This document shows positions 1 to 45,718 of a DNA stretch of 64,000 nt, in pieces. Origin of the DNA: an uncultured candidatus Porisulfidus sp. (GTDB taxonomy: Bacteria > Pseudomonadota > Gammaproteobacteria > Poriferisulfidales > Poriferisulfidaceae); the NCBI GenBank assembly GCA_965116525.1, contig OZ220694.1, positions 758,702 through 822,701 on the forward strand, written 5' to 3'. The notes below the pieces were generated by a model. It was not told the DNA's origin. It saw only the letters and a list, made by a program, of their open reading frames with translations, and made no database searches. The translations under genes and the position numbers were made by a program. The stretch's first letter is position 1. Every line of letters begins with the position of its first letter.

Positions 1-1631
1 ACGCGAGAGTGGAAATGCGGAACACCTACCACAATGACCTGTCCATCACCCGGATCAGGCGTGCGCTGGACGCCGTGTACAGAGACCCGGACAATCCGAA
101 CAGCGAAATCGTGTGCCGGGCCGCCCTGCCGGATGCCGACGGGGCGGTGGAGGATCCGGACTGCGTGCCCTGGAATATCTTCGAGACCGGGGCGGCGACC
201 CCGGAGATGGTCGGCTACCTGGCCAAGCCCCTGCATGCCCGCGGCACGACTGAACAAATCGTGGCATCCGCCTTCATCGCCGGCGATCTGGATGAACACG
301 ATATCCGGTCCCCGCTCGCCGACAATGCCGTCAGCGTCGTGCTGGGCGGTGAATACCGGAAGGAAATCCTCAACTTCAATCCCGACGAGGGGTTCCGGAC
401 CGGCGACGGCTCCGGCCAGGGGGGCGCCACCCAACCCGTCAGTGGCAGTTACGATGTGGCCGAGCTTTTCGTGGAGGCCAGCATTCCCCTGATCGAAGGG
501 AAAAAATACGCCGAGGAACTGTTGCTCGACACGGCCTACCGTTACTCCGACTACGACTACGATGAGACGACGCATACCTACGCGTTCCGCCTCGGCTGGC
601 AGGTCGATTCGAACGTCAGGGTCCGCAGCAGCTACCAGCGGGCGGTCCGGGGGCCGAACGTGCAGGAATTTTTCCTGCCGGAAAGATTCACCCTGTTCGA
701 GATCGGGGGAGATCCCTGTGCAGGAAAAATCATGGATGGCAAAACTGAATTGGGTTACACCTTCGAGCAATGCCAACTGTCGGGCGTGACCGAGGATCAA
801 TGGGGCAAGATCGAGCATTCGCCAGCCGCCCAGTACAACGCGTTGCAGGGCGGCAACCCCGACCTGTCGCCGGAGATCGCAAAAACCTGGTCGATCGGCA
901 TCGTGTTCACACCCGAAGCCGTCGACGGCCTGTCTCTCATGGTGGACTACTACAACATCCAGATTGAACAAGGCATCCGCTTCCCGGACCCCGAAGAGGT
1001 TATCAAGCAATGCCTCGCCGGTAATCAGCCCCTGTGCGAACAGATCCATCGGGGCAGGAACGGCGATCTGTGGATCGGTTCCGACCTCGAAACCAGCGGG
1101 CATGTGGTCTCGCCCAAATCCAATCTGCCGGGCGAGGAAGTGGCTGGCCTGGATGTCGTGATCGATTATGCCGTTGACATCGGGGTATGGGGCGATCTGT
1201 CGTTCAACAATGTCCTGTCGTACATCGATTCCTGGGACCTGCAGGAACTTGAGGGTGCGCCGACGAAGAGTTGCGCCGGGAACTGGACCTGCGGCCCCCC
1301 GATTCCGGATTTCCAGAATCGGCTACGCGTGACCTGGAATTCCCCATGGGACGTCGCGGCGAGCCTCATGTGGCGCCATATCAACCGGGTCGATGGCGAC
1401 GGGGAGAGCCTGGTCGACCTGTGGAAGATGAATTACCTAGATCTGGCCGTCACCTGGCAGATCACGGACGACGCGAAGATTCGGTTCGGAGCCAACAACC
1501 TCTTGGACAAGTCCCCGCCTGTCGCGGGCAACCCGGCAGGGCCGTCCCGGCTGGGGAACGGCAACGTCTTCCCCGGCACCTACGATGCCTTGGGGCGCTA
1601 CCTGTTCATGGGCGCGAGCATGGAATTCTGA
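1..1631 (+). CDS. TonB-dependent outer-membrane receptor, C-terminal part (5' end lies outside the window)
   Basis: 540-aa ORF runs open to the window edge. The C-terminal beta-barrel region ends ...GRYLFMGASMEF, with an aromatic terminal residue. Beta-strand-rich composition is typical of TonB-dependent receptors. Confidence 0.75.
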   Translation, partial: ARVEMRNTYHNDLSITRIRRALDAVYRDPDNPNSEIVCRAALPDADGAVEDPDCVPWNIFETGAATPEMVGYLAKPLHARGTTEQIVASAFIAGDLDEHDIRSPLADNAVSVVLGGEYRKEILNFNPDEGFRTGDGSGQGGATQPVSGSYDVAELFVEASIPLIEGKKYAEELLLDTAYRYSDYDYDETTHTYAFRLGWQVDSNVRVRSSYQRAVRGPNVQEFFLPERFTLFEIGGDPCAGKIMDGKTELGYTFEQCQLSGVTEDQWGKIEHSPAAQYNALQGGNPDLSPEIAKTWSIGIVFTPEAVDGLSLMVDYYNIQIEQGIRFPDPEEVIKQCLAGNQPLCEQIHRGRNGDLWIGSDLETSGHVVSPKSNLPGEEVAGLDVVIDYAVDIGVWGDLSFNNVLSYIDSWDLQELEGAPTKSCAGNWTCGPPIPDFQNRLRVTWNSPWDVAASLMWRHINRVDGDGESLVDLWKMNYLDLAVTWQITDDAKIRFGANNLLDKSPPVAGNPAGPSRLGNGNVFPGTYDALGRYLFMGASMEF

Positions 1632-2856
1632 TTCTTTCCGCAATCCGGTCGACGTCTGCCTGTACGACACCGTGCTCTTTGGCGAGTTTTCGCCACTGCC
1701 TCAATGAGGCTTTTACCTGCTCGATCATGTCATTGATTCGGGGACGGGGCAGTTCCCCCTCCAAACCCAGCCGGATCAGGTGCTCGATGCTCGGATTCTT
1801 TCCCTCACCCATGACCGTAGTGCTTTGTTCCCCACCCGGACCGGAAGCGAAGGTCAAGTCGTAAGCCGGAGCAAACGTCCAATCCCCCTCCGCATCCATC
1901 AGGAAACTAAAATTCTTGGAATGATCATCCTGATTGTGGGCCAAGACGTTGAACACGGCCAAGCGGAATATTTTTTCTGTTTCCCGAATATCATGCGTCA
2001 ACGCCATTGTCAGCGCCATCAAGTTCTTGTAATCCAGTGACGGCACCCTGGGATCAGCATGCAGCAAGCCGCAGGCACTATGCACGTGAAGGCGGTAGCC
2101 GCCACAACGATCAAACCGCTTCGTTGCGAAGTAGCCCGCGCCTTTTTGCGCCAGAAACAGGTGAACGTCGGTCATATCCAAGCCCGCGTCCTTGGCCATC
2201 AAAGCATAGACGTACTCAACGGCCCCGGCGCTCAATCCATCGCCATGGTTAGGGAATTTCACCAGCCACGGCTCGAAACCCTCCGGCAGTGAATGCCTGC
2301 CGTGAATTGCAGCCCGGCGGTCCGCGTCCAGCCCGATCATCGCCTTGGGCCGCGCGCCTGCCGAAGAGCCATTCAGGGCCAGCAGTTCTTCCAGAACCTC
2401 TTCTGCCTCACCGTCCAGCACCTCCTGCACGTGTCTGGCAAGCTGGTCCAAGTCGATATCACTATCCGGCGCGCCGTCACCAAAGTCAGGTTCATAGACC
2501 AAAGCGCCCATGCCGGTTCTCCCTACATGCGCCAGCCGGTCCAACGGGGTCATCTCTCCAGGAAAGACTCCACTCGACATCATCATGCGGTCGAGCAGCA
2601 GACGCCCCCAACCGTCCGGCAGGCTGTCGTTGAACACGCCAGGCAAGCCATCAAATAAACGGCGATCGAAAGTTTGCACACCGGGACGGAGTGGCAGGTT
2701 GAACGGTGAGATTTCCAAGCCTGCGTCCAGAAAGGCCGGATCGTATTCGAAATAGATTCGGCCCTCGCGAAACGCGAATCTCCCCAAAGGCAGGACTGTC
2801 TCCGTCAACTCGAGGCCGACCTTGATCTGGTTAATGGGCGAATTCATGTGCGCCAT
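1606..2856 (-). CDS. hipA: HipA-family serine/threonine kinase toxin (type II toxin-antitoxin)
   Basis: 416-aa protein whose N-terminal (coupling) and C-terminal kinase-like regions have the HipA layout. It lies immediately downstream of, and overlaps by 13 nt, a small XRE-type HTH gene. Its 3' end overlaps the convergent receptor gene by 26 nt. Confidence 0.8.
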   Translation of the reverse strand: MAHMNSPINQIKVGLELTETVLPLGRFAFREGRIYFEYDPAFLDAGLEISPFNLPLRPGVQTFDRRLFDGLPGVFNDSLPDGWGRLLLDRMMMSSGVFPGEMTPLDRLAHVGRTGMGALVYEPDFGDGAPDSDIDLDQLARHVQEVLDGEAEEVLEELLALNGSSAGARPKAMIGLDADRRAAIHGRHSLPEGFEPWLVKFPNHGDGLSAGAVEYVYALMAKDAGLDMTDVHLFLAQKGAGYFATKRFDRCGGYRLHVHSACGLLHADPRVPSLDYKNLMALTMALTHDIRETEKIFRLAVFNVLAHNQDDHSKNFSFLMDAEGDWTFAPAYDLTFASGPGGEQSTTVMGEGKNPSIEHLIRLGLEGELPRPRINDMIEQVKASLRQWRKLAKEHGVVQADVDRIAERIRIPCSRP

Positions 2857-3152
2857 CCCCGTTGAGGCGTCTTCTTTCTGGCCTCTTTCAATACCTCGTC
2901 AATGGAGGAAAACTCGGCCTGCTCCGGCTTTACCGCTTCAACCACGCGTTCCAAGCCCCCGAGGACCATCAGCAGCTTGAGAAAGGACTCCAGAGAAATC
3001 GCTCCCTTCTGCTCGAATTTTCGCAATGTGGCTAGTTTCACCCCGGAGCGATAGGCCAAACCCTGTTGCGTCAGCCCTATGGCCAAACGTCTCGCTTTGA
3101 CATGTTGCGCAAGTTCCCGTCGCGCTTCTGACAGGGTAACTAGATATTTCAT
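2844..3152 (-). CDS. hipB: HipB-like XRE-family HTH antitoxin / transcriptional regulator
   Basis: 102-aa protein with an XRE helix-turn-helix (RRLAIGLTQQGLAYRSGVKLATLRKFEQ). It is the first gene of a two-gene operon with hipA. Confidence 0.7.
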   Translation of the reverse strand: MKYLVTLSEARRELAQHVKARRLAIGLTQQGLAYRSGVKLATLRKFEQKGAISLESFLKLLMVLGGLERVVEAVKPEQAEFSSIDEVLKEARKKTPQRGWRT

Positions 3153-3241: not shown

Positions 3242-4279
3242 TCAGTAATCCGTCATCCGCTCCATCAGGTAGCACAAGCAGTCTTGTTCCACGATCTTCT
3301 CCCGCGTGGTCAGCATCGACAGGAAAAACGGCTGCCGCACCATCAACTGCCGCCCCTGGTTCTCGAAATACATATCGAAGACATCCTGCCCCTGCTCATC
3401 CTCGACTCGCAGGCGAGGGTGGACTCCTTCTCCCCATTCTCCGAAAGCCGTTCCCACGGCCAACTCCTGGAAGTTGCATTCCACCAGTGCCTCCGGCATG
3501 TAAAAATCAAAGCCCCGGCTCTGGAAACTGAACGACAGGCCCTCGGGAATCCGTACCCGAGCCCGGGTGTGGAACAACTCCAGTTCGTCCGCGCTTGGCT
3601 GATGATCCGGAATGGACTCCTCGAACAACCGCTGCTCCAGGTACGCCTTGGCATGGACAATGCCTTCCGGGCTCTCCGGCAGGCCGCATTCGATGGTCAC
3701 GGACGGGCACAGTTCACTGAATGCCATGGACTGCATCCCAAGCAGCGCGCGGAAATACACCGCGGTCCTGGAGAACCTCTGCGCGAGGTACAGCGAGCGG
3801 CCGTCCAGCCAGTTGACGCAGGCATAGTGGGGATTCGGGCCGGTCGTGTTGTGCACGTCGATACTGGCGATCGGGCTGCGACGGCGCATCTCTTCGACGA
3901 CCTGCCTCGCCATCTGGTGCTCCGGGCTATCGCCGCCATCCCAGATCCGATTGTAATCCGGCTGGTCATCAAGACGGCGCAGGCCGAGACGGGCCGCCTT
4001 GACATTGCCGATCAGGACGGACAGCGAACGCGGCAGGCGCGCTTCGGAGAAATCCCTGAGGACCCCGCGCACCGCCTCCCAGCCCGCGATTTCGTTTCCG
4101 TGGAGCAAGACCGACAGGAACAGTGGGTCGGGCTGCTCCCCGGGAAGATGCAGCAGAGTCGGCCCGCCGAGGACTTCTTCCAGACCTTCGGCCGGGCAGT
4201 CCGCCAGCCCCGGCGGCAAATGGTCCAAGACGTTCAGCATGACTCGCTCACAGCGGCCATTCGTGTACCGGCACTCCAC
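3242..4279 (-). CDS. Succinylglutamate desuccinylase/aspartoacylase (AstE/AspA, M14-like) family zinc deacylase
   Basis: 345-aa protein with an N-terminal HGNE zinc-binding motif (LLHGNEIAGWEA) characteristic of the AstE/AspA family. Its start overlaps the upstream ligase gene by about 30 nt. Confidence 0.65.
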   Translation of the reverse strand: MECRYTNGRCERVMLNVLDHLPPGLADCPAEGLEEVLGGPTLLHLPGEQPDPLFLSVLLHGNEIAGWEAVRGVLRDFSEARLPRSLSVLIGNVKAARLGLRRLDDQPDYNRIWDGGDSPEHQMARQVVEEMRRRSPIASIDVHNTTGPNPHYACVNWLDGRSLYLAQRFSRTAVYFRALLGMQSMAFSELCPSVTIECGLPESPEGIVHAKAYLEQRLFEESIPDHQPSADELELFHTRARVRIPEGLSFSFQSRGFDFYMPEALVECNFQELAVGTAFGEWGEGVHPRLRVEDEQGQDVFDMYFENQGRQLMVRQPFFLSMLTTREKIVEQDCLCYLMERMTDY

Positions 4280-5678
4280 TCTGCTGACGCGTCAGGTAGG
4301 TGCCGACCAGGGATTGCATGTTGCCGTCGTGAGAATAACGCCAGGCGCGCATCCAGCGCGCACCGGTCCGCCTTTTCTCCACACGCGCCTCGATGATGTC
4401 GAGGTAGCGGTCTGATTCGGATTCGTCGAGGCCGCTGGCTTTCAGTCCCCGGCGCGCCATCGGCAGCAAGGTCTCCAGGATCAACTCCGAAATCGGGTAC
4501 TCGGCGCCGTCACCCCAGACAATCCTGGTGTCGAGACCGGTGCAGGCCGCCCGGTAGAAGTTATCCCGTGCTGTCACGAACGGAATGTCCAAAACGGCTC
4601 CCTCTCCCCCCTCCAGGGCTGCCATCATTGCGCCGACCCAAAACGCGACGTTCGCGATCATGTCGATCCCGGTCGGTCCCGAAGGCATGACCCGGTGTTC
4701 GATGCGCAGGTGTGGCACCCCGTCCTCGCTTCCGATCAGCGGGCGATTCCAGCGCCAGATCGTGCCGTTATGAAGCTTCAAGTGCATGAACTGCTCATCC
4801 TCTGACTTGAAAGGCTGCGGCAGGATGACCGGGAAAACGTTCAGGTTTTCCTCGAAGAATTCGAACAGCGACTCGTGCGCGCAATCGCTGCCGCAGCCGA
4901 CTCTCCCGATGCGCTGATGGGCCTGGCCGGCAAACGTGGACAGGCTGACCGACTGCTCGAACAGCGGCACCCGGGTTTCGTCCCACAGATCCCTCCCGAA
5001 CAGGAAGGGCGAGTTGCAGGACATGGCGACCGTGGCCGCGGACAAGGCCATTGAAGCGTTGTAGGCGGCGACCGTGCGCGATTGGGGGACCTGCAGGTGA
5101 ACCTGGAACGAAGTGCAGGCGGATTCCAGCATGACATCCTCGTGCAGGCTGAACAAGTGATCGCGTCCACGGATGTCGATCTGCAACGGACGATTTTTAC
5201 GCAGGTCCATGACGCGCTCGTTGAGCGCCCGGTAGCGCTTGAGCTGGCTCATGCTATCAACCGTCAGGTCACTCTCCTGCACGGTCGGCAGGATGCCGAT
5301 CATGCCGAGCCGCATGTCCATGGACTCCGCCACTTCCGTCGCCCGCGTCCAGGACTCATCCAACTGCTGGTGGAGCAGGGACAGCATGCCGGATCCCACC
5401 GGGGTGTGCGGCGTATTGAATTCGATGTTGAACCGCGACAGTTCCGGCAAGCAGAGCGGATCGTTGTACCGCTCCAGGTAAGCGTCGTTGTGCGGCAGCG
5501 GATGGCAGTCCAGGTCAATCAGCCAGGATTCCAGCTCGAACCCGACCTGATAGGCCTGGTCGTCGAAGCGTCGGTCCCGGAACCAGCGGCCAAGCAATTC
5601 GGTTTCGCGCTCCAGCGCGCCCCGAAAACGCTTCGCGTCGGACTCGCTGAACTGGTCCGTGCGGATCTCGTCACCCAT
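4248..5678 (-). CDS. Glutamate-cysteine ligase family 2 (GCS2 / plant-type gamma-glutamylcysteine synthetase-like) carboxylate-amine ligase
   Basis: 476-aa protein. Length and conserved blocks are consistent with the GCS2 carboxylate-amine ligase superfamily. Its start overlaps the argA stop by 8 nt. Confidence 0.6.
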   Translation of the reverse strand: MGDEIRTDQFSESDAKRFRGALERETELLGRWFRDRRFDDQAYQVGFELESWLIDLDCHPLPHNDAYLERYNDPLCLPELSRFNIEFNTPHTPVGSGMLSLLHQQLDESWTRATEVAESMDMRLGMIGILPTVQESDLTVDSMSQLKRYRALNERVMDLRKNRPLQIDIRGRDHLFSLHEDVMLESACTSFQVHLQVPQSRTVAAYNASMALSAATVAMSCNSPFLFGRDLWDETRVPLFEQSVSLSTFAGQAHQRIGRVGCGSDCAHESLFEFFEENLNVFPVILPQPFKSEDEQFMHLKLHNGTIWRWNRPLIGSEDGVPHLRIEHRVMPSGPTGIDMIANVAFWVGAMMAALEGGEGAVLDIPFVTARDNFYRAACTGLDTRIVWGDGAEYPISELILETLLPMARRGLKASGLDESESDRYLDIIEARVEKRRTGARWMRAWRYSHDGNMQSLVGTYLTRQQSGVPVHEWPL

Positions 5679-7047
5679 TCCGCTCTCCCAAAACCTTGGT
5701 CAGCACCTTTGCGTTGCGCCGGTTGTTGTAGAACTTCCGCCGCGCAACCGGCAGGGACCGGGGCGAGGAGGGCCGGAACCCTTGCTCCCGGAACCAGTGC
5801 ATGGCCCGCGTGGTCAGGGCATAGATCTGCCGAAAGCCGTTCTCGGACGCGCGGGTCTCCGCATCGTCCAGCAAAGTGTGGCCGAATCCCTGACCCTGGT
5901 ATTCCGGGTGGACCGCAAGGCAGATCAGCTCTGCGTGAGTTTCGCTGAGTGGGTGCAGGCACGCGCAGGCCACGATCAGCCCGTCCAGTTCGATCACGCG
6001 GAAATTGTGGATGCGTAACTCCAGTTCCTCCCGGGTCCGCTCCGCCAAGGCGCCCTGGTCGATCAGCGGCGCCAGCAGGCCCACGATGCCGCCGATGTCC
6101 GGGATTTCCGCCTGCCGGGGCGCATAGGCTTCGGTGCGTGTGACCATGAGCCCGGCGCCAGCCCGGGTGAACAGTTCCTGCAGAATCACGCCATCACGAC
6201 GCGCATCCAGAAGGTGGATGCGGCCCACCGAAGACAGGCTGGCATCCACGGCGCCCTGCAGCATCTGCCGCTGGACGGGGCTGAGCCTGCGCCGACGGAT
6301 CAGTGCCAGCGCCTCACCCGAAGTCAACTGTCGGATCAGGCCGCGGCGGGCGCGCAGGGCCGGTTCTGCATGCAGATAGACCAACTTGTCCGCAGAGATG
6401 GACTGGGCCACCGTGCAAGCTAATGCCGCGGCATTGAGATTGAACGTTTCGCCGGTCGCCGAATAGCCCAGCGGCGGAATCAGGACGATCGCATCCTGCT
6501 GCAGCAAGTCTTCGATGGCATTTGCGGCGACCCGCCGCACTTCTCCCGTCTGTTCGAAGTCCACACCGTCATGCACCCCGCGAGGCCGGGCGGCCACCAG
6601 GTTGCCGGTCAGGACGCGCAGCCGCATGCCGGCCATCGGCGTGTTCATCAGTCCCCGGGACAGGCGCGCCTGGATTTCGGACTGAAGGGCTCCCACGGTT
6701 TCCAGCACCGCGGGCATGTCCGCAGCTCGGGTAATCCGGCAATCGGCATGGAAATCCGAACCCGGGAGCCTCCGGTCGATCCGGCACCGCGCGCCGAATA
6801 CGAGCACAAGACGAACCCCCAGGGCCTGCAACTGCGCAATGTCCTGCAGCAACGTATCTTCCCCGGGGTGTTCCAGCACCGCGCTGTCCAGGCACAGGAC
6901 GAACGTGCGGCCCCGGTGGGCGTATACATAGGGCGCGATATCGCGAAACCCTTTCAGGTTGAAGGAATCCAAGGTATTTCCGTGCGCGGCGGCGGCAAAA
7001 TCTCCTGTATATTGTAAGGGTTTGCCCGCCATGTCGACCTCCCTCAC
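5671..7047 (-). CDS. argA: Amino-acid N-acetyltransferase (N-acetylglutamate synthase)
   Basis: 458-aa protein with an N-terminal amino-acid-kinase fold and a C-terminal GNAT domain (HPEYQGQGFGHTLL). This is the classical bacterial ArgA architecture. Confidence 0.85.
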   Translation of the reverse strand: MREVDMAGKPLQYTGDFAAAAHGNTLDSFNLKGFRDIAPYVYAHRGRTFVLCLDSAVLEHPGEDTLLQDIAQLQALGVRLVLVFGARCRIDRRLPGSDFHADCRITRAADMPAVLETVGALQSEIQARLSRGLMNTPMAGMRLRVLTGNLVAARPRGVHDGVDFEQTGEVRRVAANAIEDLLQQDAIVLIPPLGYSATGETFNLNAAALACTVAQSISADKLVYLHAEPALRARRGLIRQLTSGEALALIRRRRLSPVQRQMLQGAVDASLSSVGRIHLLDARRDGVILQELFTRAGAGLMVTRTEAYAPRQAEIPDIGGIVGLLAPLIDQGALAERTREELELRIHNFRVIELDGLIVACACLHPLSETHAELICLAVHPEYQGQGFGHTLLDDAETRASENGFRQIYALTTRAMHWFREQGFRPSSPRSLPVARRKFYNNRRNAKVLTKVLGERNG

Positions 7048-7855
7048 CCGCCTGCACCCCGCGGATACTTCACCCCATCCGTTGTCCGGCCTGTGTCTTG
7101 AACACCGCCTTATCGAACGAGCGGAGGCAGGTCAACCATACATCTACAGCAGTTTCATCATGAGCCTGAACGGGGCCATCGCGATCGACGACGGACAAGG
7201 CAACTGGACACACCCCGCGACCCTGACCGACCCGCGCGACCTCAGGCTCCTGTGCGAACTCATGGCCCAGGCCGACTGCCTGATCACCAGTGCCGGCTAC
7301 CTGCGCGACCTGGAACGCGGCAGCCTCGGGAACCTGCTGCAACTGCCGAAAACGCCGGAATTCCAAGACCTGTCCGACTACCGTGCGCGCCACCACGACA
7401 CATCTTTCCCGACCGTGCTGGTGGTCAGCCGAAGCCTGGATTTCCAGGTTCCGGCATCGATAGAAGAACACGGCCAGACCCTGCGCGTCCTGGCCCCGGG
7501 AAACGCTCCGGAGCGGCGAGTCGCCGAGCTGCGCGACCAGGGAGTCGACGTGATCCTCAGCGAGGATACGGACTGGGTCGAGAGCGAGGCCGTAATCACC
7601 AATCTGAAGGAACTCGGCGCACGGACAGCATATCTTTTCTGCGGCCCCCAGATGAACGGGATCCTGATGAAGTCCGGCCGGGTCAGGCGCCTGTACCTGA
7701 CATGGCTGCACCGGCTGCAGGGCGGGCACCCGGCATTGACGGTCGGGTCGTTCCTGCCGGCTTCGCAATCTTCTTCCCTAGAACTCGTGGAACTGTTCCA
7801 GGCGGAGGTCGAAGGAGATCTTCCAGGGTTTTGGTTCGGCTATTTCGATGCGTGA
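7031..7855 (+). CDS. RibD C-terminal domain (dihydrofolate reductase-like) family protein
   Basis: An internal ATG at 7031 avoids overlap with the argA start. The fold resembles the RibD_C reductase domain (GPQMNGILMKSG...). The substrate is unknown. Confidence 0.5.
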   Translation: MSTSLTRLHPADTSPHPLSGLCLEHRLIERAEAGQPYIYSSFIMSLNGAIAIDDGQGNWTHPATLTDPRDLRLLCELMAQADCLITSAGYLRDLERGSLGNLLQLPKTPEFQDLSDYRARHHDTSFPTVLVVSRSLDFQVPASIEEHGQTLRVLAPGNAPERRVAELRDQGVDVILSEDTDWVESEAVITNLKELGARTAYLFCGPQMNGILMKSGRVRRLYLTWLHRLQGGHPALTVGSFLPASQSSSLELVELFQAEVEGDLPGFWFGYFDA

Positions 7856-7876
7856 AGGCTGGCCGAAAGCCTTCGA

Positions 7877-9067
7877 TCAGCTGTATTCCGGCACCTTGCT
7901 GAAATAATTCCGGATGCCGCTGCGCAGGGCCAGCGCAATCCGGCCTTGGTGCTTCGAGGAACGCAGAAGTTTCTCCTCGTGGACATTGGAGATAAAGCCC
8001 GTCTCCACCAGGATGGAGGGAATGTCGGGCGATTTCAGCACCGCGAACCCCGCCCGTTCGACCCGCTTGCTGTGCATCTTGCCGAGCCGCCCGAGCGAAC
8101 CCACCATGTACTCCCCGGCATGCAGGCTGTACTCCTGCACAGCACCACGGGACATCGACAGCAACACGTCCTGCAGCTCAGGGTCCCGCCCTGATATCTC
8201 GACGCCCCCTTTCAGGTCCGCCGCGTTCTCCCGATTGGCAAGCCACCGCGCGTGAGAACTGCTGGAACCCCTCGTGGAGACCGCGTAGACGGACGCCCCG
8301 CGCGCGCTCCTTCTGCGCGCCGCGTCCGCATGTACCGAAACGAACAGGTCGGCTTCCTTGCTGCGCGCAATCTGGGTGCGTCGATACAGGCGCAGAAAAA
8401 CGTCCCGGTTGCGCGTCAGATGCGGCCTGATCCGGGGGTCCGCCTTGAGCAGCTTGTGCAGCTTTCTTGAGATCGACAGCACCACGTCCTTCTCGCGGGT
8501 GCCACCTTTCCCGACTGCGCCGGGATCCTTGCCGCCATGGCCGGGATCGATCATCACGACCAAGGGCCGCCTTCGGCTTAAGGTCGACGGGGCCGATGTA
8601 CGGCTGGAAGGCTTCTTCGAAGAGGCCGAAGGTTTTCGGCTGGATTTGGGCACGGCGAAGGATCCCAGAAAATCCACCACGACCCGGTCCTTTTTCCCGT
8701 CAGGGGTCAGCCACTTCTTGATCTCCGTAGGCACCAAGCGCTTCAGATCCAGCACCAGCCGCAGGGTTCCGTCCTTCGACACGCTTGAGCGCAGGTCCTT
8801 GACGATGCCGTTGCGGTCAAAGCGCGGAGACGAGGGGACAGATTTCGAGACTCTCGCCTGTCGGATGTCAAAAACGTAACGCGGTGGGTTATCGAGTAGA
8901 AACTTTCTTTCGAGTTTGACCTTCCCATCGAATTCGAACACGATCCGGTTGCGCTTTTCGTTCACGCTCTGGCGCAAAGCCACCAGCCGTCTTGCCGCCA
9001 GCACAGCGGTCGGGAAGCCCAGCGGCAGAAGAGCCAGGAGGTTCAGGAATTTGCGGCGATTCAACAT
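7877..9067 (-). CDS. amiC: N-acetylmuramoyl-L-alanine amidase (AmiB/AmiC type, with AMIN domain)
   Basis: Signal peptide, N-terminal AMIN-like domain, Ser/Lys/Pro-rich linker, and Amidase_3 catalytic domain (MIDPGHGGKDPGA ... SVHADA ... E). Confidence 0.85.
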   Translation of the reverse strand: MLNRRKFLNLLALLPLGFPTAVLAARRLVALRQSVNEKRNRIVFEFDGKVKLERKFLLDNPPRYVFDIRQARVSKSVPSSPRFDRNGIVKDLRSSVSKDGTLRLVLDLKRLVPTEIKKWLTPDGKKDRVVVDFLGSFAVPKSSRKPSASSKKPSSRTSAPSTLSRRRPLVVMIDPGHGGKDPGAVGKGGTREKDVVLSISRKLHKLLKADPRIRPHLTRNRDVFLRLYRRTQIARSKEADLFVSVHADAARRRSARGASVYAVSTRGSSSSHARWLANRENAADLKGGVEISGRDPELQDVLLSMSRGAVQEYSLHAGEYMVGSLGRLGKMHSKRVERAGFAVLKSPDIPSILVETGFISNVHEEKLLRSSKHQGRIALALRSGIRNYFSKVPEYS

Positions 9068-9076: not shown

Positions 9077-9565
9077 TTATGTTGGAGTCGGGACTTTTGG
9101 CAATGCCCCCCACTCCATCTGTTCCAGCAAGCCTTGCCCGCGTTCGCTCGCGGCATCGATTTCAAGCCGCCGCGCCAACTCCGAATCTCCATGGCTAAGA
9201 TGCAGGCGCACATCCGACCGGGCATCGATTTCTGGCCATCGCTCCGGCCATTCCACCAGCATCACCGCGTTGCCGTCCAGAAGTTCCCGGACTCCCAGCG
9301 CCTCCAGTTCGAGCGGGTCCTGCAGACGATACAGGTCCACGTGCCAGACCTTCATGCCACCTGTCTCATAAGGCTCCACCAAGGTGTAGGTGGGGCTCGG
9401 CACGATTCCGTCGTGACCCAGAGCCCGCAGAAAAGCCCTCACCCAGGTCGTCTTGCCTGCGCCGAGCGGGCCGCGAAGGGCGAATACGCACGGCGCATCC
9501 AGTGCCCGGGCTACCGCGGCGGCATGGGCCTCGGTCTGGTCCTGCGTGTCGAGGTCAAACAGCAT
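9077..9565 (-). CDS. tsaE: tRNA threonylcarbamoyladenosine biosynthesis ATPase TsaE (YjeE)
   Basis: 162-aa protein with a Walker A motif (GPLGAGKTT) and the YjeE family pattern. It sits in the conserved nnr-tsaE-amiB gene order. Confidence 0.85.
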   Translation of the reverse strand: MLFDLDTQDQTEAHAAAVARALDAPCVFALRGPLGAGKTTWVRAFLRALGHDGIVPSPTYTLVEPYETGGMKVWHVDLYRLQDPLELEALGVRELLDGNAVMLVEWPERWPEIDARSDVRLHLSHGDSELARRLEIDAASERGQGLLEQMEWGALPKVPTPT

Positions 9566-11018
9566 CCGACAGTGTCCGCAGATGGGGCAGAAGATCGCTG
9601 GCCATCATGCCGTGCATCCCCTGCTCACGGGCGCGATCGCCTGCCGCTGCATGCAGGCAGGCTCCGGAGAGAGCCGCGGGGCCAAGGGCCTGACCCTGAC
9701 CGATCAGGGAAGCGATGACGCCAGTCAGCACATCGCCCATCCCGGCCGTCGCCATGCCGGGGTTGCCCTCGGCACAGACGCTGATCATTCCATCGGCATC
9801 CGCGACGAGCGTGCCGCACCCCTTGAGGACGACGACCCCTCCGTAGGTTTCCCGGATGCGCCCGACCGCCGAGAACCGGTCCTTCTGGATTTCCGCCGTC
9901 GTCGTGCCGAGCAATGCCGCCGCTTCTCCCGGATGCGGGGTCAGGACCCAATCCCCGGATGAATTCTCACGGGGGTCGGCGGCCAACAGGCGGAGCGCAT
10001 CCGCATCCATCACCCGTGGACCGGGCATCTCAAGGACCGCCCCGAGCATATCCTGCGCCCAGGCATCCTGTCCAAGCCCGGGTCCGACGGCAACGACGGA
10101 AGCCACCCCCGCCAATTCACGGAGAGCCCGCCGGTCCGCCACTGCGTGGCACATCAACTCCGGCACCGGGGAACGCGTCCCCGAAGCACCCGGCGGCTGG
10201 GCGAGGCTGACCAGGCCGCTGCCGCAGCGCAGGGCGGCAATGCCGCACAATTCGGCCGCGCCTTGATAACCGGCTCGCCCGCCGATCACCAGCACATGTC
10301 CGTATTCGTTTTTGTGCGAATTACTCCGACGCCGGGGCAACCCCCGGCGGATCTCCGCCCAATCGCACAATGTCACCGACGAAGCATTGCCAGGCTCCAC
10401 TCTCAGGTCGTCGTAACCCACCCGACCCGCACAATCCGGCCCGTCCGCGGTATACAGGCCGCGCTTGCGCGCGATGAACGTCACCGTGTGATCGGCCCTC
10501 ACGGTATGCGGGTCCGCCACCCCGGTATCCGCATCCAAGCCAGACGGAATGTCCACGGAAACAACCCCCGCATCCGACTGGTTGATGCGGTCTACGGCCT
10601 CCGCCCAGTCACCCTCGACCGGGCGGGACAGGCCGGTGCCCAGCAGCGCGTCCACGACCAGATCCTCGTCGATCGGAGCTGCCTCTGCAAACGATTGCAT
10701 GGGAATCTCGGCACGCTCCGCCTCTCCGTAGGCGGCCTCGGCATCGCCTTTCAGGGACTGCCCCGGAGCCAGTTGCACGATGCGCACGGATTTTCCGAAG
10801 CCCTTCATTCGGCAGGCTACGAGATACCCGTCGCCGGCATTGTTGCCGACCCCGGCATAGATCACGATACGGTCGATCTCCGGATATTCCTTCTGAATCA
10901 GCCGGCAAACTGCCTCTGCGGCACGTGTCATGAGTTCCAGGCCGGGAATGTCCTGGCGTTCAATGGCATCCCGGTCGATTGCGCGGGTTTGCTCCGCCGT
11001 GTACAGCGAACGGGTCAC
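9555..11018 (-). CDS. nnr: Bifunctional NAD(P)H-hydrate repair enzyme Nnr (YjeF; epimerase + ADP-dependent dehydratase)
   Basis: The YjeF_N domain ([13 protein letters not shown]...GVGNNAGDG) and the C-terminal carbohydrate-kinase-like dehydratase domain are both present. The GTG start at 11018 forms a GTGA overlap with the upstream hyuB stop. The 197 Gly/Arg-rich codons further upstream in the ORF are judged non-coding. Confidence 0.8.
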
Positions 11019-12550
11019 GCCACGGACCCCCAACCGCCCGCTCCCGGCGTCTCGATCACCAGCCGGTCGCCCTCGGCAGCCGAGCGCTGGCATTTTCCGG
11101 GGAGATCCTCTCCATTGAGACGGTTGCGTCCCGCCTGTCCATCCGTGCCTCCGGCAGCGCCCGGCGGCGTTCGGTATCGGCGTTCCGCCAGCAAGCTGAA
11201 CCGAGCCGGAGCGCGGAACTCGTATTCCCGAATCACCCCCTCCCCGCCCGGATGCTGGCCCTGCCCACCGGAACCACGGCGCAGCGCATAGCGACGCACC
11301 TGCATCGGGTACACCTGTTCCACCACTTCCACCGGCGTGTTCAGGGTGTTCGTCATGTGCGAATGGCGGGCCGACAGCCCCGGGCCTCCGGCATGGGCGC
11401 CCATCCCTCCCGCCAAGGTCTCGTAGTAGGCCCAGGATTCCTTTCCGTCCTGGCCCACGGCAAAGTTGTTCATGGTGCCCTGGCTGGCCGCCGGAATACG
11501 TTCCGGGAGAGCCTCCCGCAATGCCGCAAGGACCAGGTCCACCACGCGCATGGAGGTCTCGACGTTCCCAGCCGCCACCGCCGCAGGAGACTGCGCGTTG
11601 AGCAGGCATCCCTCGGGGGCATGCAGTTCAATGGCATCGAAACACCCGGCGCATGCCGGGGTGTAAGCGGGCATCAGGCAGCGGAATGCGTAATAGACGC
11701 CCGCGGCCGTCACCGAGATCGGGCAGTTGATCGGGCCTTCCACCTGCGCGTCGGTGCCCTCGAAATCGACCCGGACCCGGCCGTCCTGCACCTGGAGGCG
11801 GACCTGCAGGCAAACATCTTCGTGACCCAAACCGTCGTCCTCCATCATTTCGGCCGCCTCGTAGGTCCCGTCCGAAATAGCCTTCAGGGCATTGCGTGCA
11901 ATGGTTCGCCCGTAATCGTTCAGCGCGCTCAAGGCCCGAGCATAAGCCTCCGCCCCCCTTTCCTCAACCTGCTCCCGCAGGCGCGTGCAACCCAGGTCAT
12001 TGACATGCACCTGCGCCAAGAGGTCTCCGCGCATGTCCCGCGGCGCCCGGGTGGCACTTACGATGGCCTCGATTCTCGACTCGTCCAGCCGACCGCCCTG
12101 GCAGATCCGCTGCGGCGGCAGGATCAGGCCTTCCTCCTCCAGCCGGCGCGAGATCGGCATGGAACCCGGCGATTCGGCGCCCACGTCCGCATGATGTGCC
12201 CGGTTCACCGCAAAGCCCTGAAGCTCGCCGCCCAGGAAGCACGGAGTGACCACGGTGATGTCGGGCAGGTGAGTCCCCCCGAGGAACGGATCGTTGAGCA
12301 GGATGGCGTCGCCATCACTCCAATCGAATTGATCCACCAGGTCCTGCATGGCATACGCCATGCTGCCCAGATGCACCGGAATGTGTGCCGCCTGCGCAAC
12401 CAACCGTCCGACACGATCGAAAATCGCGCAGGAGAAATCCAGGCGATCCCGAATGTTGGGCGAGAACGCGGAACGGCGCAGGGTTGCGCCCATCTCTTCG
12501 CACAACGCTTCCATGCGGCTTGAAAATACGGCAAGTTCTACAGGATCCAT
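11015..12550 (-). CDS. Hydantoinase B / oxoprolinase (HyuB) family protein
   Basis: 511-aa protein. The N-terminus [21 protein letters not shown] and overall length match the HyuB/OplaH_B family. No hyuA partner was found in the window. Confidence 0.7.
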
Positions 12551-19739: not shown

Positions 19740-21095
19740 TCAACCGCTATCCATTTTACCCACTGACCGGCCTTCCATGAAAGGGGTCAGTCGGCGACGG
19801 TTCATCGCGATCAGCAGAAGGCTCGGAATCACCATCAGGGTCGTAATCACAAAAAACAGCGGCCAGTCTCCGCCCAGCCCGTCAATCAGGATGCCGCTGC
19901 CGGCGGCGAGCAGGGTCCGGGACAGCGTCCCGAGAGACGCCAACGCCGCATATTGAGTGGCCGTCCAGTTCCGGTCGCACAACTGCGACAGGAAGGCGAC
20001 GAAGGCGACCGTGGAGATGGCGGTGGTGAACTGGTCGGCGATCACGGCGACCACGAACAACCACGACGACGGGTACCAGGCCAGCAACGCGAACAGGAGA
20101 TTGGTCAACGCCATCGCCACGCCGCCGATAATGATTCCGCGAAGCAGGCCGTAGCGGGCATTGATCAGGCTTCCGAGCACGGCGAAAATGGCGATGGAGA
20201 TCGCACCGTACCCTTTGGAGTACAACGCGATGTCGGACTTGGAAAAGCCGATTTCTGTATAGAACACCAGCGACATCCGCCCCAGGAAGGCCTCTCCTAT
20301 TTTGAACAGGAAGATCGCCACCAGCAGGAAGACCGCGAGCTGCGCTCCGTAGCGCACCACGAAACTCCGGACCGGACGCACATACATCTCCAAGAGATAA
20401 CCCCCCCAGTCAGCGGGCCGGGGCGCTTCCCGCCGGGGACGGTCCGGTTCCGGCACCAACCAGAGAAATAACCCAACCAACACCCCCACCAGCAAGATCA
20501 GCCACAAATAGCCGTGCTGCCAAGCCCGTTCGACACCGGCTTCCTGCATCCGCTCCACCAGCCACAGGGCGAGTCCCCCGCCCAATCCGTACCCGATCCA
20601 CCAGCCGGAGGTCGCCATCGCCGAGCCTCCGCCGACCTTGCGCGGTTCGTCTTCACGGAACTGTTCGATTCGCAGGGCATCGATCGCGACATCCTGGGTC
20701 GCACCGGCGGCCGCCAGCACTACCGCCCAGACCGCGATCCACTCAAGCTGCCCAGCAGGCTCCAGGCGCGACAGCGCCGCCAGGCACACGACGATCACCG
20801 TCTGCATGGCGACAATCCATGAACGCCGGGGACCCAGCCAGCGGGTCAAGCCGGGAAGGCGCACCGCATCCACGATCGGGGCCCATGCGACATTGACCGC
20901 GTAAACCACCAGCACGAGGCCGAACAGGCCGATGTCCGTCCGGCTGAAACCGCTTTCCTGCAGCCACAGGGTCATCATGGACAGCACCGCGACCTGCGGC
21001 AGGCCGCTCAGCATGCCGATCAAAAGGATCCGCACCATCCGGATGTCCCGGTACATGGCCAGAGCCTCGCGCCAACTCAGCGTATGGATTTCCAT
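19740..21095 (-). CDS. ampG: AmpG-family muropeptide MFS permease
   Basis: 451-aa polytopic MFS protein with AmpG-like conserved blocks (DIGLFGLV..., GYGLGGG). Confidence 0.75.
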   Translation of the reverse strand: MEIHTLSWREALAMYRDIRMVRILLIGMLSGLPQVAVLSMMTLWLQESGFSRTDIGLFGLVLVVYAVNVAWAPIVDAVRLPGLTRWLGPRRSWIVAMQTVIVVCLAALSRLEPAGQLEWIAVWAVVLAAAGATQDVAIDALRIEQFREDEPRKVGGGSAMATSGWWIGYGLGGGLALWLVERMQEAGVERAWQHGYLWLILLVGVLVGLFLWLVPEPDRPRREAPRPADWGGYLLEMYVRPVRSFVVRYGAQLAVFLLVAIFLFKIGEAFLGRMSLVFYTEIGFSKSDIALYSKGYGAISIAIFAVLGSLINARYGLLRGIIIGGVAMALTNLLFALLAWYPSSWLFVVAVIADQFTTAISTVAFVAFLSQLCDRNWTATQYAALASLGTLSRTLLAAGSGILIDGLGGDWPLFFVITTLMVIPSLLLIAMNRRRLTPFMEGRSVGKMDSG

Positions 21096-22594: not shown

Positions 22595-23405
22595 CCGCGG
22601 AACGCAAGCGGTCACGCACCGGCTCAGTATCGGGGCGTACGCCGTGCCACAGCTCGAAACTTTCCGCAGCCTGCTCCACCAACATCCCAAGCCCATCGCA
22701 GACGCGGGCGCAACCCGCCTGACGAGCCCAGGCCAGAAATGCCGTGTCGGCACCGTACATCAAGTCGTAGCAGACCGTCTGCTCCACATCAAGGATTGAA
22801 GCCGGCAAACTCATCGGCGAATCCGACAATCCCGCCGCCGTGGCATTGAGGATCAGGTCGAAGGAAGCGTTGCCCAAATCCCCCAGTCCACATGCTGCCA
22901 AGTTGGCAGAGGCATCGTACGACGCGACCAATACATGCGCACGCTCAGGGGTGCGGTTGGCCACGGTAAGGGACTGAGGGGCGCACGCCAATAAAGGACC
23001 CAGGATGCCCCGGGCCGCGCCGCCCGCGCCCAGCAGCAGAATCCGCATGCCGGACAGGTCCAGACCCAGCGTTTCGGTGAGGTCGCGAACCAGGCCGCTG
23101 CCATCGGTATTGTCAGCAACGACGGCATCTTCTCCAAAGGACAGCCAGTTCGCTGCGCCCGCCGCACGGGCGTGCGGCATGACCTGTGCTGCCAACCCTA
23201 GCGCTGCTTCCTTGTGCGGCACGGTCACGTTGAGACCGCGCCCGCCCGCCTGCCGAAACTCCTGCACGGCAGCCTCGAAATCGGCCGCCGAGACATTCAA
23301 CTGCCGGTAGTGAATCTCCTTGCCGGTCTGCGCCGCGAACCAGGCATGGATCACCGGCGACAGGCTGTGCGTGACCGGATCCCCGATGACGGCATAGCGC
23401 TCCAC
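22575..23405 (-). CDS. aroE: Shikimate dehydrogenase
   Basis: N-terminus AVIGDPVTHSLSPVIHAWFAAQTG, NADP-binding GAGGAARG, and length 276 aa. Confidence 0.85.
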   Translation of the reverse strand: MERYAVIGDPVTHSLSPVIHAWFAAQTGKEIHYRQLNVSAADFEAAVQEFRQAGGRGLNVTVPHKEAALGLAAQVMPHARAAGAANWLSFGEDAVVADNTDGSGLVRDLTETLGLDLSGMRILLLGAGGAARGILGPLLACAPQSLTVANRTPERAHVLVASYDASANLAACGLGDLGNASFDLILNATAAGLSDSPMSLPASILDVEQTVCYDLMYGADTAFLAWARQAGCARVCDGLGMLVEQAAESFELWHGVRPDTEPVRDRLRSAAKPRTA

Positions 23406-23411
23406 GGATTG

Positions 23412-24419
<1,008 letters not shown>

Positions 24420-24497
24420 TTAAGTTTAGGGGATTGCGGCCATTTCCGGAAACCGGAGCGGTCTCCCAGATCACAGGGAGACTACAATATAAGGCCA

Positions 24498-25007
24498 ATG
24501 CGCCGGATCCGAAACCTCCATCTCCTTGGCCTCGTCATCTGCTTGGCCGCCCTCGCTTTTGGTTACTTGTACCTGGAGCACACCCTGGGCCTTGAACCCT
24601 GTCCGCTGTGCATCCTGGACCGGATTATCTTCATCGCATTGGCCGTTGTCTTTGCGCTGGCTTACTTCCAGCGACCCAATGCAGGGGAACGGATTGGCTA
24701 CGACGTCGGCGCGCTAATCATAAGCCTGGGCGGGGTCGGAATCGCCGCACGGCACGTCTACCTCCAAAACCGTCCGGCGGATACCCTGGGCGACTGCGGC
24801 GCGGGATTCTGGCACATGCTTGACCGATTCGGCCTTGAGGGAGCAGTGTCCTCCGCATTGCAGGGCAGTGGCGATTGCGGCAGCATTCAGTGGACGTTCC
24901 TAGGCCTGTCAATCCCTGCCCTGACCCTGGGCCTTTTTGTGGTATTGTTCCTTTTGTCACTGACCGACATGATTGTTGCCATCCGGAACCGTCACAAGGA
25001 GTTCTGA
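24498..25007 (+). CDS. dsbB: Disulfide bond formation protein B
   Basis: 169-aa four-TM protein with the periplasmic-loop cysteine pairs (LEPCPLCI and DCGAGFW...CGS). Only the C-terminal part of a long spurious ORF is taken as the gene. Confidence 0.8.
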   Translation: MRRIRNLHLLGLVICLAALAFGYLYLEHTLGLEPCPLCILDRIIFIALAVVFALAYFQRPNAGERIGYDVGALIISLGGVGIAARHVYLQNRPADTLGDCGAGFWHMLDRFGLEGAVSSALQGSGDCGSIQWTFLGLSIPALTLGLFVVLFLLSLTDMIVAIRNRHKEF

Positions 25008-37712: not shown

Positions 37713-38761
37713 GCGTGGCGCTCCAGCGCCCACGCGACATGCTCGCGCACCAGTTCGCTGGGGTGTCCGGCGCGGGCTCTCAGCGACGCGACCACGGCCT
37801 CGTCGCGCGGGGCATTGCCCAGCGCCACGGCGACATTGCGCAACCACTGGAGGTGGCCGATGCGGCGCATCGCCGTGCTCTCGGTGTGGCGCAGGAAATC
37901 CTCCTCTTCCCAAGCCATCATCTCTACCAGCGATGATCCCTCCAGCGCCGCCCGCGGCTGGAAATCCTCCACGGAGGCCAGTTGCGCGTAGCGGTTCCAA
38001 GGACAGACCAACTGGCAATCGTCGCAGCCGTAGACCCGGTTCCCGATCAGTGGCCGCAATGGTACGGGTATCGGCCCCTTTAGCTCAATCGTCAGGTACG
38101 AGATGCAGCGGCGCGCATCCAACTGGTACGGCGCGACAATCGCCTGGGTCGGGCAAACGTCGATGCAGGCTCGGCAGCTCCCGCAGTGCTCTTCTTCGGT
38201 CGGCGGATCGGGCGTCAACGGCAGGTTCGTATAAATCTCGCCGAGGAAAAACCAGGATCCCGCGTCCTTATCCAACAGGTTGGTGTGCTTGCCGATCCAG
38301 CCCAGTCCGGCCCGCTCGGCCAAGGCTTTCTCGAGCACCGGCGCGCTGTCGGTGAACACACGGTAGCCGAATGGGCCCGCCACTTCCTCCATACGTTTCA
38401 CCAAGCGCCGCAGACGACTGCGCAACACCTTGTGGTAGTCCCGCCCCAAGGCATACCGAGACACATAGCCGCAGGCCGGGTCCGCCAGTGCCTGTTCTGC
38501 GCGATCGATCCCGTGCGGCAGGTAGTTGAGCCGCACCGAAATCACCCGCTGCGTCCCGGGTACCAATTCCTTCGGGCGCGAACGGCGCACCCCGTGGCGC
38601 TGCATGTAGCCCATCTCGCCATGCCAGCCCCGCCCCAGCCAGTCCAGCAGGCGTGCCTCATGCTCCTCCAGGTCCAGGTCGGCAATGCCCACCCGATCGA
38701 AGCCCAACTCCCGGCCCCACCGGTGGACGGCATGCGAAAGATCCGGCAGTGAATCGGACAT
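37709..38761 (-). CDS. queG: Epoxyqueuosine reductase
   Basis: 350-aa protein with two 4Fe-4S ferredoxin-type cysteine clusters (CGSCRACIDVCP, CDDCQLVCPWN) and a C-terminal HEAT-like region typical of QueG. Confidence 0.85.
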   Translation of the reverse strand: MSDSLPDLSHAVHRWGRELGFDRVGIADLDLEEHEARLLDWLGRGWHGEMGYMQRHGVRRSRPKELVPGTQRVISVRLNYLPHGIDRAEQALADPACGYVSRYALGRDYHKVLRSRLRRLVKRMEEVAGPFGYRVFTDSAPVLEKALAERAGLGWIGKHTNLLDKDAGSWFFLGEIYTNLPLTPDPPTEEEHCGSCRACIDVCPTQAIVAPYQLDARRCISYLTIELKGPIPVPLRPLIGNRVYGCDDCQLVCPWNRYAQLASVEDFQPRAALEGSSLVEMMAWEEEDFLRHTESTAMRRIGHLQWLRNVAVALGNAPRDEAVVASLRARAGHPSELVREHVAWALERHA

Positions 38762-38805
38762 GGCGGAAAAGGACTCCCTAAAAGGGTTCTACTATACTGA
38801 CTACT

Positions 38806-45281: not shown

Positions 45282-45287
45282 ACGCGA

Positions 45288-45713
45288 TCAGAACCCGGCT
45301 TGCTTGTACAAGGCGCGGGCGCGCTCCACGTCTTGCGGCACTAGCGTCCCTTCCTCGTACATCATGGCCAACGTAGTCAGCGAGCCGGCCAAGCCCTGAG
45401 CCGCCGCCTTTTCGTACCAGTACACGGCCTTTTCTCCGTCCTGCTCAACGCATTCGCCTTCCATGTACATGAACCCCAACCCGTGTTGCGCCAGCGCCAG
45501 ACCTGCCTCGGCCGCCGCAGTCATCCAGATCAAAGCCCGTTCGGCATCTACCACGCACCCCAATCCATTCTGGTACATAATCGCGCATCGGTACTGAGCC
45601 TCCGGGTCTCCCGCCTCGGCCAGCGGCGTCAACAACTGCAGAGCGCGCGCAAACTGCTTGGACGCGAACGCCGAGATGCCGCTTTCCAGGCTCAGTTGAG
45701 TCGATTCATCCAT
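45288..45713 (-). CDS. Sel1-repeat (TPR-like) protein
   Basis: Three or four Sel1 repeats (AQYRCAIMYQNGLGCVVDAERALIWMTAAAEAG..., AQHGLGFMYMEGECVEQDGEKAVYWYEKAAAQG...). Confidence 0.6.
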   Translation of the reverse strand: MDESTQLSLESGISAFASKQFARALQLLTPLAEAGDPEAQYRCAIMYQNGLGCVVDAERALIWMTAAAEAGLALAQHGLGFMYMEGECVEQDGEKAVYWYEKAAAQGLAGSLTTLAMMYEEGTLVPQDVERARALYKQAGF

Positions 45714-45718
45714 GGCCG

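Follow-up and report, generated by a model that had tools for sequence, protein, structure and literature searches.

The DNA analyzed here is a stretch of 64,000 nucleotides (the window) from an uncultured candidatus Porisulfidus sp. (contig OZ220694.1, positions 758,702 to 822,701). Its subject is a run of three consecutive open reading frames (ORFs) on the minus strand, located at 5671-7047 (458 aa), 4248-5678 (476 aa) and 3242-4279 (345 aa). The initial annotation had described them as argA, coding for N-acetylglutamate synthase, followed by a GCS2-type carboxylate-amine ligase and by a zinc deacylase of the AstE/AspA family. We found the ORFs exactly at these coordinates, on this strand and as tightly packed as had been described, and the three identities were correct at the superfamily level as judged by Pfam, NCBIfam and fold matches. 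The GC content at third codon positions was 0.78-0.82 in the argA, ligase and deacylase ORFs, as for real genes of this region. At E<=1e-3 the ligase had 5919 homologs and the deacylase 4032; both ORFs are therefore real genes and not chance ORFs.

The end of argA and the start of the ligase gene (4248-5678) overlap by eight nucleotides (5671-5678; ATGGGTGA as read from the sequence), which suggests translational coupling, and the ligase start is preceded by a GGGAGAG Shine-Dalgarno sequence. The same 8-nt overlap is annotated in a relative (L083) with a ligase that is 64% identical. An overlap between the ligase and the deacylase had been claimed as well. An alignment of 40 homologs placed the start of the deacylase at the ATG at 4240 (MLNVLD...), 7 nt past the ligase stop, and thus defined a gene at 3242-4240 with a product of 332 aa. 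Between the ligase stop codon (4248-4250) and this probable start codon (4238-4240) lies a 7-nt spacer at 4241-4247. Since the homologs start at this ATG, the second overlap, which needs the GTG at 4279, is probably an artefact of selecting the longest ORF. Of the overlapping stops and starts described initially, then, the one between argA and the ligase stood, and the other was replaced by a probable gap.

For argA itself the ATG at 7032, five nucleotides downstream of GAGGGAGG, appears more likely to be the start than the GTG at 7047. The gene 5' of argA is a plus-strand RibD_C gene (within 6959-7855), and because it is divergent, argA, the ligase and the deacylase make up a transcription unit of their own. 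A minus-strand ORF at 7070-7768, considered as a fourth gene of the operon, was rejected as a shadow of the RibD_C gene. Directly 3' of the deacylase stop, a terminator-like hairpin with a T-rich tail (3233-3211, minus strand; consensus scan) probably marks the end of the unit; hits of this kind occurred across the region only at chance level. No RNA families or tRNAs were found in the operon region.

By curated family models the product of the first gene is an ordinary ArgA. With NF003641 it scored 469.5 bits, above the cutoff of 344, and with TIGR01890 426.4 bits, above the cutoff of 202.85; it has the Pfam domains AA_kinase and Acetyltransf_1, that is, an amino-acid kinase plus a GNAT domain.

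The second product belongs to the GCS2 superfamily, which has the fold of glutamate-cysteine ligases (GCLs), and it belongs to no curated GshA family. The match to Pfam GCS2 was marginal (22.5 bits with a cutoff of 21), no NCBIfam model was hit at its cutoff, and the scores against the GshA models were 24.4 versus a cutoff of 409 for NF010043 and 16.5 versus 463 for TIGR01436. There was no detectable profile similarity to E. coli GshA (hhalign probability 0.2%), and searches of the PDB by single sequence and by profile found no sequence relatives. The suggestion made earlier that this gene might be a gshA thus had no support from curated models or sequence profiles. The AlphaFold model of the ligase, with a predicted local distance difference test score (pLDDT) of 83, had as its top Foldseek matches YbdK (1r8g), plant GCL (2gwc), yeast GCL (3ig5) and E. 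coli GshA, with Dop/PafA and glutamine synthetases ranking next. The sequence identity to the YbdK, plant GCL and yeast GCL structures was 13-16%.

Compared to YbdK and the plant-type GCL (PDB 1r8g, 1tt4 and 2gwc), the ligase has the same fold (Foldseek E 2e-12 to 8e-11, target-normalised TM 0.67-0.77) and shares core motifs of the types ExE, N-S-P and R-I-E-x-R. Its C-terminal half aligns with YbdK at N-S-P and at (R/T)-(I/V)-E-x-R-V. On the other hand, it is about 100 residues longer than YbdK, and these known enzymes lack the AstE-like partner that is obligate to the ligase here. Residues E48/E50 (the ExE strand), E86/N88, Q192/H194, N222-S-P, R312 and R325-I-E327-x-R329 are invariant in the ligase family. 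From their resemblance to GCL-family motifs, and not from structural superposition, we infer that they form the metal- and ATP-binding set of an active ATP-dependent ligase.

An exhaustive search with a hidden Markov model, covering 1.84 billion cluster representatives, gave the ligase family a size of 1033 clusters at 50% identity (E<=1e-30). It is a distinct and uncharacterised family. Public sources name it 'glutamate--cysteine ligase', a label that is unproven for this enzyme. In Allochromatium vinosum the name GshA was given to a gene by annotation only (PMC4213376).

The third product matched Pfam AstE_AspA_cat (PF24827) with 31.7 bits (cutoff 25). It scored 20 bits against TIGR03242, the AstE model (cutoff 305.65), and 16.6 bits against NF002601, the aspartoacylase model (cutoff 180). 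The protein is in the AstE/AspA superfamily and is neither AstE nor aspartoacylase; with scores so far under the model cutoffs, the initial view that its function is not the textbook one was well founded. The hhalign probability against E. coli AstE was 85%. Fold matches of the AF2 model (pLDDT 94) were AstE (1yw4/1yw6), aspartoacylase, aminoacylase-3, DoeB and CphZ, and also Csd4.

Counting residues from the M at 4240, the deacylase family keeps H47-G-N-E50, R88, D95-x-N97-R98, D128-x-H130 and E184-C-G, all of which align with AstE motifs; H47, E50, H130, E184, R88, N97 and R98 were invariant across 40 sequences. The HGNE motif that had been noted in the deacylase is thus present and aligned to the HGNE of AstE. 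By analogy with aspartoacylase, we take these residues to be the zinc triad, the catalytic base and a clamp that holds the leaving amino acid by its free alpha-carboxylate. Since the clamp residues are kept, the substrate should be an N-acyl amino acid. With AstE and aspartoacylase the deacylase shares the two-domain fold, the zinc site and the catalytic Glu, and the Arg ... Asp-x-Asn-Arg motif of AstE aligns with it, while the identity is only 14-18%. Five conserved cysteines, including those of a C-terminal Q-D-C-L-C-Y motif (R-Q-D-C-L-C-Y) absent from the aligned AstE sequences, are the deacylase family's own. Also unlike the case of AstE, ast genes were not among the recurrent neighbors in the 160 loci examined for the ligase-deacylase pair.

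Whether the ligase and the deacylase occur together in other genomes, a point raised by the initial annotation, has a clear answer: the pair is conserved from Gamma-, Beta- and Alphaproteobacteria to Synechococcus. We scanned GTDB with the ligase profile, taking one genome per species, and found more than 596 relatives, for 80 of which the loci were fetched. The deacylase was directly downstream on the same strand in 73 of the 76 species-level loci with enough downstream sequence, and it was of full length in 70. When metagenome loci with at least 1.5 kb of upstream sequence were anchored on the deacylase, the ligase was immediately upstream in 55 of 59, with gaps ranging from -33 to +280 nt. 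The notion of a gshA next to argA by synteny with an unrelated deacylase therefore does not hold, as the deacylase is the constant partner of the ligase and is fused to it in divergent lineages.

The carriers of the pair include Chromatiales, Thiohalomonadaceae, Sedimenticolaceae, symbionts of tubeworms and Solemya, Ectothiorhodospira and Methylococcales, as well as Methylophaga, Thiobacillus, Nitrosomonas, Rhodocyclaceae, Methylocystis and Rhodospirillaceae. Metagenome-assembled genomes labelled Planctomycetia and Chthoniobacteraceae are also among them, and so is the hot-spring Synechococcus sp. JA-3-3Ab.

Each of the two fused genes, L028 (820 aa) and L041 (838 aa), is one uninterrupted ORF, and with an identity of only 48% between them the fusion is old, not a sequencing error. 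Among the best 150 ligase clusters we observed six representatives of fusion length (~823-831 aa), and both that were scanned (P0241 and P0250) carry GCS2 plus AstE_AspA_cat. Fusions were found in several clusters differing by more than 50%. Another ~17 proteins among the best 150 had lengths of 590-790 aa, and those scanned consisted of the ligase with C-terminal tandem CBS domains. The CBS-ligase genes whose contexts were fetched (P0358 and P0370) are followed by an AstE_AspA gene, too.

Exceptions to the pairing go both ways. The ligase occurs without the deacylase in L024, L068 and L072, and the deacylase without the ligase in L100, L126, L153 and L160. Because each gene can occur alone, the two products are probably separate enzyme activities and not subunits. 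Actinobacterial and haloarchaeal homologs (28-37% identity) stand alone, and the contexts of the actinobacterial and other distant stand-alone homologs (hydrogenase genes, glutaminase, a sugar ABC transporter) offered no functional clue.

The conserved functional unit is the ligase with the deacylase, and not the trio with argA. Full-text searches found no literature on the pair; the pairing, the fusions and the CBS variants appear to be undescribed in the literature searched, while the enzyme classes themselves are known.

In individual lineages the pair has additional neighbors. In the Thiobacillus loci L019, L060 and L062 (~6100-7900) a second AstE_AspA paralogue (370 aa, 57.9 bits) is directly 5' of the ligase, which is thus flanked by two different AstE-like genes; the paralogue is preceded by a hydrophobic ORF of ~250 aa, a putative membrane protein and possibly a TauE-like permease. 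A TauE gene is also near the CBS-type pair in L173. In all six Methylococcales loci (L035, L042, L055, L069, L075, L079) the gene for a CxxCxxCC protein of ~150 aa, YcgN/YkgJ-like, overlaps or abuts the deacylase stop, and in this lineage it may be a third member of the unit.

The link to argA is real but lineage-restricted. The argA gene was directly 5' of the ligase in one of the 77 species loci, that of the window's own lineage (L001), and this arrangement is confined to that lineage (L001, L089 and L083/L084). Here L089 (LXNI01000287.1) is a close relative of the window, not identical to it, with 95-99% protein identity. Within the lineage, the three-gene order and the overlap between argA and the ligase are stable down to 64% ligase identity, with the same flanking nnr-tsaE-amiC block. 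Outside it, four loci of the Thiogranum group (L003, L005, L007, L011) have a convergent argA ~1-2 kb downstream.

For the function of the pair, we regard as evenly balanced the proposal that a carboxylate-amine ligase is coupled here to an N-acyl-amino-acid amidohydrolase and that both work on a single gamma-glutamyl-type amide. The ligase would use ATP to activate a carboxylate as an acyl-phosphate, most likely the gamma-carboxylate of glutamate or of a glutamyl moiety, and would form an amide between this carboxylate and the amino group of an amino acid. The deacylase would hydrolyse an N-(omega-acyl) amino acid of the same kind by means of its His-Glu-His zinc site, the catalytic Glu and the Arg/Asn-Arg clamp. 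With a compound shared in this way, the two enzymes would together set the level or the turnover of one gamma-glutamyl-type amide, or they would act in direct succession. The nucleotide-sensing CBS module found on the ligase in some lineages suggests a nucleotide-dependent regulation. In the window's lineage, and only there, argA would have been recruited, so that the trio forms one operon.

The gamma-glutamyl part of this proposal follows from three precedents. The structurally closest ligases in the Foldseek comparison are all gamma-glutamyl ligases and make gamma-glutamyl amides. The substrate of AstE, N-succinyl-glutamate, is a near-isostere of a gamma-glutamyl amino acid. Finally, the AstE-family enzyme CphZ hydrolyses an omega-linked isodipeptide, beta-Asp-Arg (PMC9974463), and is the best precedent for a gamma-Glu-X hydrolase in the AstE family. 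This cyanophycin dipeptide hydrolase (CphZ/AotO, PDB 8ein) resembles the deacylase in fold and is annotated, too, as an 'M14 family metallopeptidase', but the structural match is weaker (E 8e-8, TM ~0.45), and its partner is cyanophycin metabolism instead of a GCL-fold ligase.

The pairing of a ligase with a hydrolase has counterparts elsewhere. Glutathionylspermidine synthetase/amidase (Gsp) unites in one polypeptide the ATP-dependent formation of an amide bond and its hydrolysis, the amidase being under redox control. The fusions L028, L041, P0241 and P0250 likewise have the ligase and the amidase in one polypeptide, which are separate genes in the window. Since Gsp is built from ATP-grasp and CHAP domains and the present pair from a GCL fold and an M14-like fold, the likeness is one of logic and architecture only, not of membership. 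In PuuA/PuuD and EgtA/EgtC a gamma-glutamyl ligase and a hydrolase that removes the gamma-glutamyl group are encoded together and bracket a pathway. Their hydrolases, however, are cysteine enzymes of the glutamine-amidotransferase type, and the intermediate enzymes are in the same operon, whereas no conserved intermediate enzyme is found alongside the pair described here.

Several points weigh against the proposal of a shared gamma-glutamyl amide. That the ligase and the deacylase touch the same bond is something we infer, and a ligase and a hydrolase working on one bond would constitute a futile cycle unless one of them is regulated. Such regulation is only hinted at, by the CBS fusions and by the five conserved cysteines of the deacylase. 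The profile similarity between the ligase and YbdK is weak (hhalign probability 14%) and, with the Pfam GCS2 match being marginal, it is from the fold that the term gamma-glutamyl is drawn. Besides, the stability of the argA trio down to 64% ligase identity makes a lineage-specific functional tie to N-acetylglutamate possible.

As specific candidates for the compound, a thiol dipeptide and a stem peptide of peptidoglycan lead the field. We consider it unlikely that the pair belongs to thiol metabolism, with the ligase as a true glutamate-cysteine ligase and the deacylase removing the gamma-glutamyl group from gamma-Glu-Cys, possibly S-substituted, by the logic of EgtA/EgtC in ergothioneine synthesis or in thiol turnover. 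The family name used by public sources points this way, and so do YbdK and the GCLs as the best structural matches; to our knowledge, Glu and Cys are the substrates joined by all members of the GCS2 family that have been characterised (weakly by YbdK; also by plant GCL and EgtA). Redox genes are occasional neighbors, such as those for a GST in L173, for AhpC in L170 and trxA in Sedimenticolaceae loci, and the cysteines of the deacylase would suit redox control. Still, the ligase reached neither GshA model and had no detectable profile similarity to E. coli GshA, and no gshB recurs near the pair. Full-length homologs (33-37% identity) occur in Actinobacteria, which are not known to make glutathione. 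Alphaproteobacteria and a cyanobacterium carry the pair as well, and these are groups that would normally have GshA types of their own.

A role in peptidoglycan recycling is suggested by the genes found upstream of the pair. De novo clustering of all neighbors identified murU as the commonest of them: a MurU-type nucleotidyltransferase gene was immediately 5' of the ligase, often at 0-10 nt, in 36 of the 77 species loci and in 25 of 46 metagenome loci, with an AmgK-type kinase and a divergent lptD-surA frequently before it. Both murU and amgK are genes of peptidoglycan-sugar recycling. With the sugar of recycled muropeptides left to AmgK and MurU, the pair might process the peptide portion. 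The deacylase could, for example, cut the gamma-D-Glu-mDAP or the mDAP-D-Ala bond as MpaA, Csd4 or LdcA do, and the ligase could re-join a peptide or an amino acid in the manner of Mpl.

In L126 (5313-7029) and L100 (929-2783), which lack the ligase, the deacylase comes right after murU; this favors such a role. No substitute ligase was found in L126, where only glycosyltransferases are 5' of murU; the genes upstream are rho, a GT2 glycosyltransferase and an ArnT-like PMT_2 protein. The fusion P0241 is in the order amgK-murU-fusion-TPR-YkuD, the last being an L,D-transpeptidase, and near it are lipB, ybeD, a class-IV aminotransferase, dacA, rlpA and an SLT-domain lytic transglycosylase (mltB). 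Csd4, an M14-fold peptidoglycan peptidase, is among the fold matches of the deacylase, and the gamma-D-Glu-mDAP bond is itself a gamma-glutamyl amide. The window contains genes for an AmiC-like amidase (7877-9067, minus strand) and for an AmpG-family muropeptide transporter (19740-21095, minus strand; 357 bits, cutoff 350), so the organism can probably import and process muropeptides.

Nevertheless, we find the peptidoglycan role as unlikely as the thiol one. The association with murU was seen only in loci labelled as, or resembling, Gammaproteobacteria, and it was absent from the Thiobacillus, Nitrosomonas, Methylococcales, Methylocystis, Synechococcus and CBS-clade loci; none of the beta-, alphaproteobacterial or cyanobacterial loci had it. 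Neither murU nor amgK is present in the 64 kb of the window. The synteny with murU may be passive, because the region is a long-conserved housekeeping block (lptD-surA, lipAB, dacA), and we know of no GCL-fold enzyme that acts on muropeptides.

The initial annotation had also offered the deacylase as a substitute for ArgE, that is, as a non-orthologous N-acetylornithine deacetylase that stands in for ArgE/ArgJ and is co-transcribed with argA for that reason. The gene order and overlap kept in the window's lineage speak for it, as do the convergent argA genes of the Thiogranum group and the fold match to DoeB, which deacetylates N-alpha-acetyl-diaminobutyrate, a close analogue of N-acetylornithine. 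ArgE (M20) likewise uses zinc to hydrolyse N-acyl amino acids, and many bacteria regulate it together with their arg genes. However, its fold is unrelated, and across genomes the deacylase tracks the ligase and not arg genes. The one species locus of 77 with argA directly 5' of the ligase contrasts with murU as the usual neighbor, and no other arg gene recurs near the pair in the 160 loci. An ArgE stand-in needs no ligase, yet the ligase is the constant partner of the deacylase, even fused to it. Also, the pair is present in a cyanobacterium, and cyanobacteria use ArgJ.

The argD and argF genes mentioned initially as lying in this region were not found among the scanned ORFs of the 64-kb window, and neither were argE and argJ. 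As the conserved unit is the ligase with the deacylase, which argA joins only in the window's lineage, a replacement of ArgE is very improbable. The practical outcome for the window is that its AstE-like gene should not be annotated as one.

Finally, that the ligase and the deacylase are mere neighbors with unrelated functions, brought together by chance or by hitch-hiking in an operon, is hardly credible: each gene is sometimes found without the other, but more than 90% of the loci, from several phyla, have them side by side, and the fusions are ancient, as the 48% identity between L028 and L041 indicates.

A broader claim can be put forward only tentatively. The genes called 'glutamate--cysteine ligase' and 'M14 peptidase' might together be a widespread, undescribed two-enzyme system (more than 1000 clusters at 50% identity) and no enzyme of glutathione metabolism at all. 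Such a system might make and hydrolyse a new gamma-glutamyl metabolite, or it might supply the peptide salvage that the AmgK-MurU route of peptidoglycan recycling lacks, in place of the non-orthologous Mpl, LdcA or MpaA.

Besides the operon, the window has several features of its own. Directly downstream of the operon (1606-3152, minus strand) are genes for a HipA-like kinase (416 aa) and a HipB/Y4mF-like antitoxin (102 aa), preceded by an AT-rich stretch that contains a sigma-70-like promoter (3217-3190); the GC content falls to 0.58 in the 2-4 kb bin. On the other side, at 9555-11609 (minus strand), the longest nnr (YjeF) ORF has 684 aa, and its first ~195 residues overlap a hydantoinase-B/caprolactamase-beta-like ORF at 11015-12550 (minus strand). 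Because L083 has two separate genes here, of 510 aa and 484 aa, the start of nnr in the window is probably near 11020. Farther away, a 597-aa ORF at 23214-25007 (plus strand) has a DsbB domain only at residues 433-583, with no family match for the N-terminal 430 residues, and it is either an ORF with a mis-called start or an unusual fusion.

With 858 bits, an asparagine-synthase-type gene at 38806-40587 (plus strand) exceeded the cutoff of 570 for TIGR03104, 'N-acetylglutaminylglutamine amidotransferase'. The usual partners of TIGR03104 genes (the Ngg GNAT/ATP-grasp protein and an M42 hydrolase) are not beside it; its neighbors are a 671-aa GH13 protein (sucrose-phosphorylase-like, below cutoff), a 188-aa ORF without a family and a histidine-phosphatase-like ORF. 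The locus also spans 36003-38018 (minus strand) and 38186-38752 (plus strand), and the region 36003-40587 may be an osmolyte locus of unusual composition. A tie between the operon and this asnO-like gene, 32 kb off, was considered and rejected, as nothing beyond the shared acetyl-glutamyl chemistry supports it.

At 43102-46813 (minus strand) there is a run of four genes, for a DUF2201 metallopeptidase/VWA-like protein, a MoxR-type AAA ATPase, a Sel1-repeat protein and a YbiB/TrpD-like protein, after which comes tRNA-Gly(CCC) at 46826-46899. The 212-aa protein encoded at 52946-53584 (plus strand) matched Pfam GPP34, the Golgi phosphoprotein 3 family, over its full length (111 bits). GPP34 is uncommon in genomes of the gammaproteobacterial type.

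The ligase-deacylase pair is very widespread among environmentally important organisms: autotrophs, nitrifiers, methanotrophs, sulfur oxidisers and chemosynthetic symbionts. Both proteins come from well-known enzyme superfamilies, so the class of chemistry is not new. Public annotation nevertheless presents them as a glutamate-cysteine ligase and a generic peptidase, although the pair fits no curated model, and this may mislead reconstructions of glutathione or cell-wall pathways. If the ligase is not GshA, glutathione-pathway reconstructions for the carrier organisms would be wrong; if the pair belongs to peptidoglycan recycling, it would fill a step downstream of MurU.

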